DNA of 14,678 nt from Thermotogota bacterium (GTDB lineage: Bacteria > Thermotogota > Thermotogae > Petrotogales > Petrotogaceae), in NCBI GenBank assembly GCA_051748045.1, contig JBNJGY010000046.1, positions 1-14,678 of the forward strand, read 5' to 3'. Position 1 is the stretch's first letter, and the number at the start of each line of letters is the position of its first letter. The notes under the pieces were generated by a model. That model did not search any database. It was not told the origin of the DNA and saw nothing but the letters and a program-made list of their open reading frames with translations. The translations under genes and the position numbers were made by a program. Positions 1 to 13,670 of the stretch are shown one piece after another.

Positions 1-411
1 AATATATGGTTTTTTTGCTTTTGGATATTTTTCTATGATTTCCTCAATTTTAGCATTATATTCATCTATAAAATATTGATTTAATATTTTAGGTGACCTA
101 TCATCTATCCATTTATCATTCAGCATACCATCTCTAAGAACCATAAGACCTGCAATAGCTTTTGTTATATGTGACAGACCTGAATCTTCATCTATATCTT
201 GACCTTCCCACCAAGCTACTATATGTCTCATACAAGCATCGTAATATACAGATGCTCTCACACCCATAACACGATAGTTACTTCTACCATACTTTCTTGC
301 ACCTTCATACATAGCTGTAGCAACTTCCATCATAACCTGTGCAGGAACACAAGACATAGGAACTTTCTTTATCCCAACTGCATCTTTTGGGTTTGTATCT
401 TTAACCTTCAT
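1..411 (-). CDS. DUF5664-type dATP/dGTP diphosphohydrolase domain protein (3' end beyond window edge; absent from ORF track)
   Basis: Hand translation from ATG at 411: MKVKDTNPKDAVGIKKVPMSCVPAQVMMEVATAMYEGARKYGRSNYRVMGVRASVYYDACMRHIVAWWEGQDIDEDSGLSHITKAIAGLMVLRD... It has the NPKD, GAxKYGxxNY, YxxAxxRH and D.DSGLxH signatures of the family. ATGA overlap with the upstream ORF stop; no stop before position 1. Confidence 0.85.
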   Translation of the reverse strand, partial: MKVKDTNPKDAVGIKKVPMSCVPAQVMMEVATAMYEGARKYGRSNYRVMGVRASVYYDACMRHIVAWWEGQDIDEDSGLSHITKAIAGLMVLRDGMLNDKWIDDRSPKILNQYFIDEYNAKIEEIIEKYPKAKKPYI

Positions 412-2931: not shown

Positions 2932-3146
2932 TTAAAATTCACCTTTATAAATTCGTTATCTTTTATCTGTTTGAAATAACAGTCAAAGTTATTTATATCA
3001 CTTTGCATAACTTCATCTGCTATCAACCCCTCTTCGATTTCATCACAAACCCCTTCTAACTCGTCTGTATCGTTATTGAAATAACCTTCTGCAACTTTCA
3101 GATATTCTCCATCCCAAAATAATATATAACTCCAATACATTTTCAT
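2928..3146 (-). CDS. small acidic hypothetical protein
   Basis: 72-aa ORF with 4-nt overlaps at both ends. Confidence 0.65.
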   Translation of the reverse strand: MKMYWSYILFWDGEYLKVAEGYFNNDTDELEGVCDEIEEGLIADEVMQSDINNFDCYFKQIKDNEFIKVNFK

Positions 3147-4291
3147 TCAAAAATATTATATTTCTCTAATTCCTTTATATAATCTTTATGTCTTGAATAC
3201 ATCAGATCCATAATTTTATAAAATTCCTTTTCTTTGAAGTCTGTATATAACTGTACTATTTTAGCGAAGTTTATAAATTGTGTGTTCCATCTACCGATTT
3301 CTTCGTTATTTGAAACTTTGAAATTATATTTCGATAAATCAAATTTCACAACTTCATCAGCTAAGTTATCTCTGAGATATATAAGTTTACCTACAACCTT
3401 TTTATAATCTTCTATGTTATCTATAATAATTTGCCTTGCATCGTATTGTGCATTCACGAAATTAGGATCGTTTACCTGACCTTTCAACAACACAGGAAAT
3501 ATCCTATATAATACAGAATCTAAAAACATCGTATCAAAAAAAGGTATGCCTTTATTCATATAATATGAAGGTAAATTGTAAAACACAGTAAACCCATAGT
3601 TAGATGTATCATATACAGGATATGTGACCTCACTTCCTGTTGTTTTATGTTGATAGGTATTATTCTTAGGGTCTCCGTTTCTTAAAAAGAATTTCTGTAA
3701 TTCATCTCTCTCTGCACCTGCATATCCTGAGACTTCGTTAAAATATGTAAACCATTCATCTATCAATGTAGCTAATTTAGCTGCACTAGCGTCACCTACA
3801 TTAGTACCATGACCTACAAGACTTATGATATTATTAGCAACTGCATCTTTTCCGAACCCTTGTCTTGTGCTTATCCTGAAAAATGATTTAGTTGTAGCTG
3901 TTAATATACATATAAGTTTACATAACAACAAATCATCTGAAGATGTATGTTTAGCAGGAAATATATAATCAACTAAAGTCTTTGTATCTAAAGTATCGTC
4001 GGCTTCCATCTTTTTGGAATCTGTACCAATAACAAGATGATATACTTTACCTCTGAATATAATCTTTTTAGATTGTGTGATTTTAAAAGGCATCTGATGG
4101 ATAATCTCAGAAGGTACAAAATATACTTTCTTGGATTTGAAATCTTTTAATTCAAATCCTTCATATCCTACCTTATTATCATCTCTTATCACCCTCTCAT
4201 CGCCCCTTAAAAAATGTGGTTTAAACACATCTCTATAAACAGCATGATTGAACTTCTTAATTGCATCCGAATGAAACATCAACTTTTCCAT
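3143..4291 (-). CDS. divergent AAA+ ATPase, MCM-like putative replicative helicase
   Basis: Walker A-like STRQGFGKD, ASAAKLA (cf. MCM SSAAGLT), Walker B-like FTYFNE, sensor-1-like FYN, Arg-finger-like VLYRIF (cf. LLSRF), all in the expected order. Confidence 0.6.
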   Translation of the reverse strand: MEKLMFHSDAIKKFNHAVYRDVFKPHFLRGDERVIRDDNKVGYEGFELKDFKSKKVYFVPSEIIHQMPFKITQSKKIIFRGKVYHLVIGTDSKKMEADDTLDTKTLVDYIFPAKHTSSDDLLLCKLICILTATTKSFFRISTRQGFGKDAVANNIISLVGHGTNVGDASAAKLATLIDEWFTYFNEVSGYAGAERDELQKFFLRNGDPKNNTYQHKTTGSEVTYPVYDTSNYGFTVFYNLPSYYMNKGIPFFDTMFLDSVLYRIFPVLLKGQVNDPNFVNAQYDARQIIIDNIEDYKKVVGKLIYLRDNLADEVVKFDLSKYNFKVSNNEEIGRWNTQFINFAKIVQLYTDFKEKEFYKIMDLMYSRHKDYIKELEKYNIFE

Positions 4292-6779: not shown

Positions 6780-6950
6780 ATGAAAGATTCAGAGAAAAAG
6801 GAAAAGATAAGATTTATTTTTGAACAGATAATGAAAACTTCTAAAGAAATTCTAAGTTCTGAAAGTAACCATCAGAAAAAGTTAGAAAAGAAAATCTTAT
6901 ACCAATACATAAATGAATTAGATGATGAATTATCAAGAAAAGATATATAA
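6780..6950 (+). CDS. small helical protein, 56 aa (not in track)
   Basis: MKDSEKKEKIRFIFEQIMKTSKEILSSESNHQKKLEKKILYQYINELDDELSRKDI*; follows the promoter and overlaps the primase start. Confidence 0.65.
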   Translation: MKDSEKKEKIRFIFEQIMKTSKEILSSESNHQKKLEKKILYQYINELDDELSRKDI

Positions 6951-7794
6951 TTATATTCAGAATAGGAAACTCATACAGCTTGTTACTGTAAAGGAGAGTA
7001 GAAGACATTATAATAAAATAATGAAAAACGCTACTCATAGAGAAGTTGCACCTGATGAAATTATAATTGAATTTGATACAGATAACGAAATTTTAATGAA
7101 GAAATTATTCAAAAAAACTATATCACGATTAAATGCTAATTCTTATAATTATTTTGTTTTTGATCATTATGGTCGTTCTCCTCATATACATTTATATAAC
7201 TTTAGAGGGTTACTAGAGCAAACCGATATAGTTAGAAGTGCATATAAAAAGATGTTTATAGAAAGATATGCACCTTATAAAGAGGTTGATGTGAGCTTGA
7301 ATACAACAAGAGAACATTTAGTTGCATTTGAATTTAGAAAACATTATAAATACAACACAATAAAAGAATTAATATATACAAATACAGGTATTATTTCTAA
7401 TAGATTAGAAGTTGATATACTTGCTAAAGCCTATAAAGAAGAAAGGCAGATAATACAAGAAATGATGAAACGAAAAGATGAAGGTGAAAAAGATTATAGA
7501 TGGATAGTTGCATGGGCTTTATCTCAACCTTTACCAGATGGTAATAGAGATAAATATGTATATAAAAATATAGCTATAGCTATAATAAACCATAAACTAG
7601 ATGACGAACCTATAGTTGAAAATTTGGCTTCTTTAAATTCTCATAAAGTAAGAGGTCAGATGTCAGGTTGGTTATCTTGGGCTAAAAATAAAAAAAGAAC
7701 TGTTTCGCCTTCCGAAATATATAAATATTGTGATGAACACGATATAGATTATTTTGGTACAAAAAAACGATGGCAAACTCTCTTGAAGATATAA
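6922..7794 (+). CDS. archaeo-eukaryotic primase (AEP) superfamily protein with helical C-terminal (PriCT-like) domain
   Basis: Motif I-like EIIIEFD, motif II GRSPHIH, motif III VDVSL; C-terminal PDGNRD recalls the GxR(N/D) of PriCT domains. Confidence 0.75.
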   Translation: MMNYQEKIYNYIQNRKLIQLVTVKESRRHYNKIMKNATHREVAPDEIIIEFDTDNEILMKKLFKKTISRLNANSYNYFVFDHYGRSPHIHLYNFRGLLEQTDIVRSAYKKMFIERYAPYKEVDVSLNTTREHLVAFEFRKHYKYNTIKELIYTNTGIISNRLEVDILAKAYKEERQIIQEMMKRKDEGEKDYRWIVAWALSQPLPDGNRDKYVYKNIAIAIINHKLDDEPIVENLASLNSHKVRGQMSGWLSWAKNKKRTVSPSEIYKYCDEHDIDYFGTKKRWQTLLKI

Positions 7795-10790: not shown

Positions 10791-13670
10791 ATGAAAGATG
10801 TTTTAGTTTTCGATATAGAAACAGAAACATTTGGAAAACCTAATCCTCACAAAGATAAACTTAAATTTATAGGGTTTCAGTTTCCTAGTGGCACTAAATT
10901 AATGTATAATTATTTACAAAAAGAAGCCATACAATCTATTTTCAGAAGGTTCAGAAATATTTCAGGTCACAACATAAAATATTATGATGTACCTATTTTA
11001 GAGAGATTTGGGATAGAGTTTAAAACATTTACAAATAAAAGACATATAATGTTAGATACTTATGAGATTCTAAGTAAAAGAGCTAAATCTTTAATGAGAT
11101 TGAATTTAGGTAAAGGTGAGATGTCTTTAAGACAACTTTGTAAAAGATTTGGTTTATCTTCTAAAGGTGATATGGATTATAATATATTAAAGAAAAATAG
11201 CTGGAACAAAGAAGAGTTAGCTTTAATTAAAGAATATTTATATGGAGATCTACAAAGTTCAACTGAGTTGTTGGATTATTTAGAAAATTATTTTCATGGA
11301 TTCAAACATTTTCTTTCACGAAAAGATGTAAAAGAGTTAAAATGGCTGACATCATCATCAGGTAGTTTTGCATATAAAGCTATATGTCATAGAACAGGTT
11401 TGCCTGAAATATATGATGATAGAGCTAAAAGACAGAAATTCAGAGCTGCAATAAGTTGGGTAAGAAACGATATAAAATCAGCAGAGAATGTGGTAGCTGT
11501 AGATTTCAAAAGTTTATATCCACACATGATGATAGGTGGTAATTTATATACACCAGCAAAAGAAGGAGAAGATTTTTGGAATGGTATGGGTGTATATTTA
11601 CCATATTTAGAAGATAGAGAACATGGTATAAGAGGTAAATATAGTAGAAAAAGAGGTAAAGTTGAAGAGTTTTTAAAAGAGTTATTTGATAGTAGAAACG
11701 AAGATAAAAAAGAGATGAAGAAATTAGATAAAAATTCAGATAGATATAGATTTTTAGATAAAATACAATATGCTAAAAAGATAATTTTGAATACAAGCTA
11801 TGGAATAGCAGGAAATCCTACATTTAAATCTGTATATGATGTTATAAGAGCAAATGATATTACAGCTATGGCTAGAAGAAGTTTAGTTCATGCAACAGAT
11901 GTATATGAGTCTTATGGATATGAGTTAATCTATCGACATAGTGTAGATGGTGATTCTAAAACATGGTATAAAGTTGAAAATAAAATTAATGAATTTACTT
12001 TCAATGAGTTTTGGAATTTATTTAAAAATAACAATATAATAAGAAAAAATGGTAATGAATATATATATTTAAAAGATGTAGAAACTTTAACTATGGATAA
12101 AGATTTAAATATAGTTTGGAAACCATTGAAATATATAATGAGACATTTAAATGATGTAGATTGTTATAAAATAAACATCAACAACCAGAATAGTTTAATT
12201 GTTACATCAGACCATAGTGTTATGAATATAGAGAATTATACACATAAATTAACAGAAGTTAAACCTGAAACCCTGTCTAAGGTAATTTTAAATAGTGGTT
12301 TTGGTAAAAAACAACAAGTTGAAATAAATCATCAATTTGAATTTTTTGGTTATTGGATTGGGAATGGTTGGTTTAGAAAAGATAATTATATTGGTATATC
12401 TACAGGTAATGACAAAGAAGAGTTATTAGAAAAATGTTTAAATTATGTTACAGAGTTAAAGAATAACAACATTTATCATAGTCATAAAGGTAATATATCT
12501 TTATGTAATACTAAGTTTGTTAGATATATGAAATCTTTAGGATTTATAAGTGGTTCAAAGAAAAAGAGAATACCTGAGATGGTATATGAATCATCTTTCG
12601 ATGATAGATGTAGTTTTTTAAGAGGTATGTTTAGTTCAGATGGAACTGTTGTAAAAGGAGTTCCTAGATATACTACTGTAAACGAAAAATTAGCTTATGA
12701 TTTAAAAAAATTGTTAATGTCTGTAGGTATAGGTTCTAGTGTTATAAAAGAAAACAAAACTAACAAATATAATAATAAAGATAGTGGTACATATTCATAT
12801 CATATAAGAATATTAGCTATGAAAATAGATATTTATAAAAAAAACATAGGTTTTATATTTAAAAGGAAAACAGATAAAATCAAAGATAGTTCTAATATAT
12901 CGTATTCTTTTAAAAGAATATCCACAGAAAAAGCTAATTATGATGGATATGTATATGATGTTGAAGTAGAAGATACACATAACTTTTTTGCTAATGATGT
13001 ATTGGTACATAACACAGATTCCTGCTATATAATAGATAAATATAACGATAAAGATAAAGTTTTAGCTATAGCAAAGGAAATATCTGAAATACAAAGAAAG
13101 AGTTTTAATATAGATATAGAAACCCATGAGTTAGAGTTTGATGGTGAATATATAAAATTTTGGCTTATACAAAACGATGATGGAGAGAATCTAAAAAACA
13201 GAAATATAGGTTTAAAACCTGATGGTACATTTAGTTATACAGGTATAAAGTTAGCTAGTGTAAATACATCAGAAGCTTCAAAAGAAGTTTTCAATAAACA
13301 CATTTCAAAATATTTGAAAGAAAATCTACCTGATGAATTATATATACCTGTTCCGAAACTTATGAGTTGGATGAAAGATGTTATAAAAGATGATCACACT
13401 TTATTAGAAAAACGATATAAAGTATATGATATATCACAGTATAAAAGTAAAACATCCTTACAAGCACAGATATCTAAAAGATATGGAGATGGGATTCATA
13501 ATTTAATTTTGAATAAATATATAGGTGCAGGTAAATCTAAAAAATATGCTAAGATTTCAGAACTAAAGAAATCATTTGGCGATAAATGGATGGATGTGAT
13601 AGATTATAAATCATATTTAAAAGAGTTAATTGAATTTATAAAACCTAAAATGAGGAAAACGATAAAATGA
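10791..13670 (+). CDS. polB: family B DNA polymerase with intein (959-aa precursor, 601 aa spliced)
   Basis: ExoI FDIET, ExoII GHNIKYYD, ExoIII YLYGD, motif A DFKSLYP, motif B KIILNTSYG, motif C YRH/TDS split by the intein. Confidence 0.95.
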   Translation: MKDVLVFDIETETFGKPNPHKDKLKFIGFQFPSGTKLMYNYLQKEAIQSIFRRFRNISGHNIKYYDVPILERFGIEFKTFTNKRHIMLDTYEILSKRAKSLMRLNLGKGEMSLRQLCKRFGLSSKGDMDYNILKKNSWNKEELALIKEYLYGDLQSSTELLDYLENYFHGFKHFLSRKDVKELKWLTSSSGSFAYKAICHRTGLPEIYDDRAKRQKFRAAISWVRNDIKSAENVVAVDFKSLYPHMMIGGNLYTPAKEGEDFWNGMGVYLPYLEDREHGIRGKYSRKRGKVEEFLKELFDSRNEDKKEMKKLDKNSDRYRFLDKIQYAKKIILNTSYGIAGNPTFKSVYDVIRANDITAMARRSLVHATDVYESYGYELIYRHSVDGDSKTWYKVENKINEFTFNEFWNLFKNNNIIRKNGNEYIYLKDVETLTMDKDLNIVWKPLKYIMRHLNDVDCYKININNQNSLIVTSDHSVMNIENYTHKLTEVKPETLSKVILNSGFGKKQQVEINHQFEFFGYWIGNGWFRKDNYIGISTGNDKEELLEKCLNYVTELKNNNIYHSHKGNISLCNTKFVRYMKSLGFISGSKKKRIPEMVYESSFDDRCSFLRGMFSSDGTVVKGVPRYTTVNEKLAYDLKKLLMSVGIGSSVIKENKTNKYNNKDSGTYSYHIRILAMKIDIYKKNIGFIFKRKTDKIKDSSNISYSFKRISTEKANYDGYVYDVEVEDTHNFFANDVLVHNTDSCYIIDKYNDKDKVLAIAKEISEIQRKSFNIDIETHELEFDGEYIKFWLIQNDDGENLKNRNIGLKPDGTFSYTGIKLASVNTSEASKEVFNKHISKYLKENLPDELYIPVPKLMSWMKDVIKDDHTLLEKRYKVYDISQYKSKTSLQAQISKRYGDGIHNLILNKYIGAGKSKKYAKISELKKSFGDKWMDVIDYKSYLKELIEFIKPKMRKTIK
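11940..13013 (+). mobile_element. intein (358 aa) with LAGLIDADG homing endonuclease domain, at the pol-c site
   Basis: Block A SVDGDS, block B VTSDHS, blocks C/E FFGYWIGNG and FLRGMFSSDG, block F/G VYDVEV...VLVHN followed by Thr(+1). Confidence 0.95.

Follow-up and report, generated by a model that had tools for sequence, protein, structure and literature searches.

The DNA analysed here encodes a family B DNA polymerase (PolB) in which the first aspartate of motif C is replaced by a histidine and the residues expected to hold the primer terminus are exchanged along with it, a combination shared by a supported clade of related enzymes. The window, i.e. the whole stretch of 14,678 nucleotides that was analysed, corresponds to positions 1–14678 of contig C46 (JBNJGY010000046.1) of a 2.41-Mb bacterial assembly with 28% G+C, in which DnaA was detected (225.8 bits) and MCR was not. 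The polymerase gene (10791..13670, + strand) specifies a 959-amino-acid precursor with an intein, which would measure ∼601 amino acids once spliced, and was recognized by its stop-free translation, by Pfam and by 579 relatives at E ≤ 1e-3. Motif C and the KxY motif are among the most conserved PolB signatures and serve as criteria for judging whether a PolB is active or dead. We consider it fairly likely that the protein is an active, proofreading phage replicase which needs a primer and holds its terminus with a rewired set of residues. In this lineage the first Asp, the Lys and Tyr of KxY and two primer-contacting basic residues have been exchanged together and appear to be kept under selection in apparently replicating phages, which offers a natural experiment on the roles of the primer-end residues of PolBs.

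Motifs of the polymerase and the His clade

Pfam detected DNA_pol_B (PF00136) on residues 232–375 of the 959-amino-acid open reading frame (ORF) with 53.3 bits against a cut-off of 23. The N-extein (residues 1–383; 10791..11939, on the + strand like all other parts of this gene) contains the exonuclease domain and motifs A and B and ends with the first half of motif C. Exo I was found as FDIETE (10809..10826; D8 and E10, corresponding to the invariant family columns D9 and E11 in the numbering of the relative P0002), Exo II as NIKYYD (10971..10988; N61 and D66) and Exo III as YLYGD (11235..11249; Y149 and D153), in agreement with the patterns DxE, Nx2-3F/YD and Yx3D, respectively. Motif A, corresponding to DxxSLYPS, reads DFKSLYPH (11502..11525) and includes the metal-ligand Asp D238 as well as Y243, which is the sugar-discriminating Tyr of KOD polymerase by alignment. 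Motif B, corresponding to KxxxNSxYG, reads KIILNTSYG (11778..11804; K330, N334, Y337 and G338). Both motifs align to the KOD and Pyrobaculum PolBs, and the residues named for Exo II, Exo III and motif B all lie on invariant family columns. In an alignment of 74 sequences, D9, E11, D70, Y153, D157, D242, K332, N336, G340, T386 and D387 (P0002 numbering) were identical in 74/74; the original prediction, made from the letters of the window, that Exo I–III and motifs A and B are intact was thus borne out.

Motif C is divided by the intein. Its N-terminal half consists of Y381, R382 and H383 (11931..11939; TAT CGA CAT), with the His in place of the first Asp, and its C-terminal half of T742, D743 and S744 (13014..13022; ACA GAT TCC), in which T742 is the Thr+1 residue of the intein and D743 the invariant metal-ligand Asp. 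The spliced motif would read YRH/TDS, with the second Asp kept and the first changed to His, in place of the canonical two-Asp YxDTDS. A phmmer search against the PDB aligned Y381 to Y538 of KOD and 9N (YSDTDG) and therefore placed H383 at the position of D540, so that the junction DNA and the alignment to KOD/9N agree on the YRHTDS proposed earlier. The C-extein alone, used as the query, gave no match among phage records and only a spurious row with E = 5 in the PDB.

Residue equivalences were obtained from a profile of 74 intein-free family members, which aligned to KOD and Tgo with E ∼1e-46, and without gaps across the KKxY hairpin. D540, K591, K592, K593 and Y594 of KOD correspond to H383, K802, N803, R804 and N805 of the window protein, and R606, E609, R612, R613 and D614 to T817, K820, S823, V824 and N825, respectively. 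The strand equivalent to KKxY is L801–G807 (LKNRNIG; 13191..13211), in which KNRN aligns to KOD K591-K592-K593-Y594 and the primer-terminus motif KxY (KKRY) is missing. The position originally given for this strand was correct, and its description is refined in one point: according to the gapless alignment the retained Lys is the first Lys of KKxY (K591), the Lys of KxY (K592) having been lost to Asn. Likewise, the strand T817–N825 (TGIKLASVN; 13239..13265) maps to KOD R606–D614, in accordance with the earlier reading of the GxExxRRD region as GIKLASVN; both primer-contacting Arg residues are absent from it and a Lys is found at the position of E609.

[quoted passage not shown] R606 and R613 of KOD make contact with the primer close to the active site, and in the KOD ternary complex D404 and D542 hold metals A and B, D540 not being listed as a ligand in the covered part of that source (PMC5718519). 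The motif A Asp and the second Asp of motif C are hence metal ligands and are retained in the window protein, as had been stated originally. The contacts to the primer terminus would be altered, because the changed residues are the primer-contacting ones in RB69 and KOD.

The N-extein was scanned against 1.84 billion representative proteins, which resulted in 579 matches at E ≤ 1e-3, of which 83 reached E ≤ 1e-30; most were ∼600 amino acids long and the longer ones carry inteins. Among viral contigs the N-extein gave a single weak locus (L001, 38 residues), which was left out of the analysis. The family alignment was made of the 117 members of at least 540 amino acids among the best 150 of the 579 matches. 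The position of the first Asp is occupied by Asp in 101 of these, by His in 10 and by Phe in 6. Nine of the His-bearing sequences, i.e. the window protein together with P0002, P0003, P0006, P0009, P0010, P0012, P0016 and P0024, all show Y-x-H-TDS, [K/R]-x-R-N and T-G-[IG]-[KR] (9/9), in contrast to K-K-x-Y and K-G in the rest of the family. After removal of the trait columns they formed one clade (SH-like support of 99 with FastTree on 117 sequences and SH-aLRT support of 100 with IQ-TREE on 44 sequences), nested among Asp-bearing sequences. The members of this H clade are only 37–50% identical and have kept the signature in spite of it, which argues that these residues are held under selection. 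The same signature was found in further members (P0057 and the contigs L011 and L012), some of them partial, and eight of the 14 clade-diagnostic positions fall within the segment that separates motif C from the T-G-x-K strand. Rather than all carrying DTD and KxY next to a singleton in the window, the close homologues thus share HTD/K-x-R-N, and the atypical lineage suspected in the original prediction is confirmed by conservation in 9/9 members and by a supported clade in the tree. The tenth His-bearing sequence, P0111, keeps the Tyr and was placed elsewhere in the tree, and the sequences with Phe include a 'YGFTDS' clade keeping the Tyr. An apparent 'Tyr-TDT' variant was rejected, as the full alignment showed these to be ordinary Y-T-D-T-D-S sequences. 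Extra segments of 120–190 amino acids before Exo I were observed in P0021, P0054, P0056, P0061, P0082, P0092, P0097, P0111, P0115 and P0117 (and P0070). A search of 50,697 deposited phage genomes gave no close relative of the ∼600-amino-acid family.

Within the family, the first motif C Asp and the second KKxY Lys were found to co-vary strictly, both being present in 101/101 sequences and both absent in the other 16/16, and the joint loss was seen in 4/4 independent tree contrasts. The Tyr of KKxY was lost just once, in the H clade. The Asp/Lys rule also fits outside the family, namely the PolB of Rhodothermus phage RM378 (IYSHTDS, EINRY) and an 848-amino-acid PolB of contig L005 (IYVHTDS, SKARN, ITG). 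We infer from the sequences that the first Asp and the KxY Lys form a structural pair, which the co-variation would predict for model enzymes such as RB69, phi29 and KOD as well.

An AlphaFold2 model of P0002, an intein-free relative with 49% identity to the window protein, was obtained with a pLDDT of 95.1 and a pTM of 0.89. Its top Foldseek matches in the PDB were the 9N, KOD, Tgo and Pfu polymerases (E 8e-25 to 1e-20, TMq 0.6–0.69, probability 1.00), and no phi29-type polymerase was present among the 50 matches listed. The family profile matched Tgo with E = 1.4e-46, profile positions 4–510 corresponding to Tgo residues 134–676; the family therefore has no archaeal N-terminal domain and starts at Exo I. 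The spacings of motifs A and B (92 residues) and of motifs B and C (∼55 residues) in the window protein equal those of KOD.

Intein and genomic neighbourhood

The intein of the window polymerase (11940..13013) comprises 358 amino acids, beginning with Ser1 and containing a TxxH block (T-S-D-H), a LAGLIDADG homing-endonuclease domain and a terminal His-Asn. The junction DNA reads TAT CGA CAT / AGT GTA GAT GGT GAT TCT... at the upstream end and ...GTA CAT AAC / ACA GAT TCC at the downstream end; S384 and N741 are therefore the ends of the intein, which is followed by Thr at +1, and joining of the exteins would give Y-R-H-T-D-S. Residues 429–741 matched the Pfam domains Intein_splicing (62.1 bits, cut-off 35.8) and LAGLIDADG_3 (56.1 bits, cut-off 22.5), and the hallmarks of class 1 inteins are present, i.e. 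S384, T-S-D-H within LIVTSDHS, VHN741 and T742 at +1. The first LAGLIDADG-like motif (intein residues ∼525–540, window ∼12300–12420) reads GYWIGNGWF, with Asn at the usual acidic site, and the second reads MFSSDGT; judged by its motifs, the endonuclease may lack activity or work as a nickase.

Inserts of more than 50 amino acids at the motif C junction were present in 16/117 family members, 15 of them at the exact D/T site (H/T in the window), the insert of P0140 appearing two residues downstream. The window protein is the only H-clade member with an intein in motif C, the other 8/9 having none there. Its closest relative is the intein of P0060 at the same site (51% identity), which resides in a distant Asp-bearing polymerase and thus points to homing as the route by which the window gene acquired it. 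All of the 14 further inteins at the exact site are preceded by Asp; therefore the His is not required by the intein, nor did the intein cause it. At the same site P0073 carries a mini-intein of 155 amino acids. Another site for large inserts follows the Asn of motif B and was occupied in 15/117 sequences (P0009, P0011, P0013, P0027 and 11 others), two sequences carrying both inserts, and P0020 has an insert of 352 amino acids in motif A.

One member of the H clade, P0009, is encoded by G001, a 42,224-bp IMG/VR record with direct terminal repeats, which also has genes for capsid, portal and tail proteins and an ORF of terminase size. This HTD PolB is the sole polymerase found there; no PolA, DnaE or DnaB was found in G001. 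The capsid, portal and terminase-sized ORFs of G001 have homologues (31–43% identity) on contigs C104 and C121 of the assembly to which the window belongs; these contigs are therefore probably part of the same phage as the window, the genome of which would be split over several contigs. The same assembly encodes a second, canonical PolB of 842 amino acids with YSDTDS, KKRY and VRKD (C40:5543-6625, - strand; L002:1114-3642). On contig C46 itself, Pfam and PHROG searches recognized phage-type genes for the N-domain of a dATP/dGTP diphosphohydrolase, an HNH endonuclease, a metallophosphoesterase and an RNA ligase. The diphosphohydrolase gene (1-411, - strand) runs off the contig end and is represented by its N-terminal 137 amino acids (PF18909, 98 bits; phrog_2252, 206 bits); none of the G001 ORFs of at least 70 amino acids, all of which were searched against the window's genome, matched this region.

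A 290-amino-acid ORF (6922..7794, + strand), encoding a probable primase(-polymerase) of the archaeo-eukaryotic primase (AEP) type, stands beside the HTD PolB in the window, in G001 and in L010. E50-x-D52, S86-P-H88-I-H90 and D123 are invariant in 5/5 sequences of this protein. When a model built from the five sequences (pLDDT 76.5) was compared with 48,161 chains, the first seven were all AEP enzymes, with Z scores near the noise range (LigD pol 9.6, CAPP Prim-Pol 8.8, Prim-PolC 8.3, NHEJ polymerase 8.2, S-2L PrimPol 8.1 and RepB' 7.5/7.4), and two of the next three were LigD pol and core primase. Neither the window ORF nor its relatives (five sequences in total) matched Pfam up to E = 5, the window ORF had no PHROG match, and Foldseek gave no match for the model at E ≤ 0.001 (E at least 0.027). 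With moderate confidence, we regard this protein as a probable primase, and it may represent an undescribed AEP family of phages. A further companion gene, encoding 382 amino acids (3143..4291, - strand), is conserved in G001 (34% identity) and L012 (32% identity). It had no Pfam or PHROG match; its GFGKD / LIDE / FYN pattern and Atlas feature matches that include DUF5906 or DUF927 clusters give a lead that it may be a superfamily 3 (SF3)-helicase-like NTPase.

Proposed function and alternative explanations

The 959-amino-acid protein would be the precursor of the polymerase of a tailed phage of ∼40 kb, from which the intein splices out of motif C. The mature enzyme of ∼601 amino acids would keep its exonuclease site, the aspartates D238 and D743 and the dNTP-binding motif B, and phosphoryl transfer would run on these two retained aspartates. 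The residues at the primer 3' end appear to have been exchanged as a set, the first Asp to His, the KxY Lys to a small or polar residue, the residue preceding the Tyr to Arg, the Tyr to Asn and the Arg/Lys before the conserved Gly to Thr, with a new Lys three residues later. A His/Asn polar network would thereby take the place of the canonical Asp–Lys pair and of the hydrogen bond of the Tyr, and the grip on the backbone phosphates would move to K802-x-R804 (cf. RB69 K705/R707) and K820. The primers would probably be made by the neighbouring AEP primase-like protein. There is a precedent for activity in piPolB, which is active without the first Asp (PMC5695915), and RM378 is an isolated phage with a His-bearing PolB.

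Several points weigh against this proposal. The enzymatic activity is deduced from sequence for every member of the family, and splicing and homing of the window intein are likewise deduced from its motifs. Loss of a Lys of the K592/K706 type is nearly lethal to RB69 polymerase, so a lineage without that Lys could represent a weak or specialized enzyme. The register of KNRN against KKxY depends on a gapless alignment across a hairpin the length of which varies among members, and the structural evidence comes from a model of the relative P0002, not of the spliced window protein. The structural pair is drawn from co-variation, for which a sign test gave p = 0.125, significance being out of reach with no more than four contrasts, and the covered literature on RB69 K706/D621 (including PMC3792054) and phi29 K498/D456/Y500 states no Asp–Lys contact. 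The AEP assignment is taken from a model of pLDDT 76.5 with Z scores of 7.4–9.6, near the range in which unrelated matches occur. As for G001, the PHROG scan covered 23 of its 57 ORFs, so that another polymerase or primase could be missed, and CheckV puts the record at 37% completeness despite its terminal repeats.

It is improbable that the enzyme is piPolB-like, with the ability to start chains de novo and/or to bypass lesions. piPolBs carry SxTTDG and K-T-R-G, and K623A and R625A impair their primer extension (PMC5695915); the K-[NAGQ]-R-N of the H clade has a similar K-x-R pattern with the Tyr gone. However, the register of KTRG against KKxY is an assumption, the motif spacings and the P0002 model fit archaeal rPolBs with no phi29-type enzyme among the 50 listed Foldseek matches, the Pfam match is to DNA_pol_B and no KH element is present. 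Moreover, the genetic element is a tailed phage and not a pipolin, and the probable AEP primase adjoins the PolB in three genomes. The hint of primer independence in the original prediction, which had rightly noted that piPolBs lack the first Asp and a canonical KxY (SxTTDG, KTRG; PMC5695915), is hence weakened by this conserved neighbour and by the archaeal rPolB-like fold, and its proposals of changed fidelity, lesion bypass or substrate choice found no support. A crippled or non-replicative PolB, serving as an accessory, repair-only or structural subunit, is if anything a little less probable still. The near loss of RB69 polymerase activity in K706A (PMC4333401), the absence of four canonical primer contacts (equivalents of K592, Y594, R606 and R613) and the canonical PolB that the host genome has on contig C40 would be in line with it. 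In contrast, the metal-ligand, dNTP-binding and exonuclease residues are all invariant, and the replacements H, R, N and T are invariant at 37–50% identity, which suggests selection for a new function and not decay; its G001 counterpart is also the sole polymerase found in that relative bounded by terminal repeats, and the window gene hosts a homing intein at this conserved site.

Low odds are likewise assigned to an adaptation of the rewired pocket to an unusual substrate, be it modified bases, a different metal ion or an unusual AEP-made primer. His is a good ligand for transition metals, and the PF18909 gene at 1-411 (- strand) as well as the RNA ligase and phosphoesterases nearby might point in this direction. 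The PF18909 gene, however, has no homologue in G001 and hence is not linked to the clade, and no base-modification genes were identified in the window by Pfam or PHROG. That the His is an artefact, i.e. a sequencing error, a singleton mutation or a residue imposed by the intein at -1, would take a single base (CAT instead of GAT), and we give this next to no credence: it is refuted at the clade level by the occurrence of His in 9/9 members of the clade as well as in additional contigs of independent samples, by the 8/9 H-clade members without an intein at the site and by the 14 other same-site inteins that follow Asp.

The rewired, primer-dependent replicase that we favour might be one instance of a wider pattern, in which HTD and K-x-R-N (with T-G) constitute a recurrent, self-consistent alternative grip of PolBs on the primer end. 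This is a speculative extension with rather low odds; it builds on the occurrence of HTD/K-x-R-N/T-G in the H clade of ∼600-amino-acid polymerases and in the 23%-identical 848-amino-acid group of large phage contigs (L005, L013, L014 and L016), with an echo in the TTD/KTRG of piPolB. If it were true, catalysis could be distinct, e.g. the enzymes might extend AEP-made or very short primers, initiate de novo, bypass lesions or balance polymerase and exonuclease activity differently, and the strict co-loss of Asp and KxY Lys would reveal an unrecognized structural pair in all PolBs. If, on the other hand, the enzyme acts like its D/KKxY revertant, the finding merely widens the known tolerance of these motifs. 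Small, exonuclease-proficient PolBs with an altered primer-terminus grip are, besides, candidates for enzyme engineering.

Comparison with known polymerases

The archaeal rPolBs (Tgo, KOD, 9N and Pfu) resemble the window enzyme in fold (Foldseek E ∼1e-24), and Exo I–III, motifs A and B, the second Asp of motif C and the spacing of short two-helix fingers are common to both. The junction of the window intein is at what we take to be the 'pol-c' intein site of Thermococcales polymerases. Unlike these enzymes, the family of the window protein has no counterpart of Tgo residues 1–133, and the window protein, which belongs to a phage of a bacterium, has His for the first Asp, replacements at the equivalents of K592, Y594, R606 and R613 and a new Arg and Lys at those of 593 and 609. 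The window protein belongs to the canonical ∼600-amino-acid PolB family of metagenomic phages (e.g. P0008, annotated as 'DNA polymerase elongation subunit (family B)'), with which it shares 30–50% full-length identity, the domain layout and the two intein sites; 101/117 members, however, keep Asp, Lys-Lys-x-Tyr and K-G, whereas the clade of the window has His, K-x-R-N and T-G.

piPolB, an active polymerase despite its SxTTDG and KTRG motifs (PMC5695915), is similar to the window clade in that the first Asp is replaced (by Thr) and KxY has given way to a K-x-R-containing motif. piPolBs, which carry TPR1 and TPR2 regions and cluster with protein-primed PolBs (PMC5695915; PMC7544198), differ by their KH-X8-KTRG element and their location in integrated pipolins (PMC5695915), compared with an enzyme of rPolB-like fold with a primase-like neighbour in the window. 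Motif C of the window protein is YRHTDS instead of SxTTDG, and of KH-X8-KTRG only K-x-R is shared, no KH being present 10 residues upstream of KNRN.

The split PolB of RM378 (Rm378p092, 522 amino acids; L017:2656-4224) also has His at the first Asp (IYSHTDS) and Asn at the second Lys of KKxY (EINRY). In contrast to the window clade it keeps the Tyr and K-G, and it has ∼30% identity to the family over part of the palm. The N-terminal and exonuclease portion is separated from this polymerase (PMC3061061), and the excerpts of the RM378 literature covered do not remark on motif C. The 848-amino-acid PolB of L005 (L005:8657-11200; also L013, L014 and L016), encoded on a 155-kb viral contig, is a divergent enzyme with an N-terminal domain that shows IY-x-HTDS, K-A-R-N and T-G; its motif A reads DLSHAYP. 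A free tree separated the L005 group from the H clade by a long branch, and the approximately unbiased (AU) test did not reject a single clade of both (p = 0.395).

PolB_SITDG has a hydrophobic residue instead of the first Asp, and for the crAss-like and HelPrimPolB groups MotifC and KxY are described as 'profoundly' different (Kazlauskas et al., 2020; PMC7544198). The covered text of that paper does not describe the His/K-x-R-N state; its supplementary sequence table includes PolBs with HTDS or HTDG at motif C, e.g. that of RM378, and His at the site of the first Asp is therefore already contained in public data. Among the papers listed by a literature search for HTDS in DNA polymerases, none proved relevant as judged by title or abstract. 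In piPolB and PolB_SITDG, exchanges of the first Asp are thus documented already, and the window clade presents a change of this kind in the form of His with K-x-R-N.

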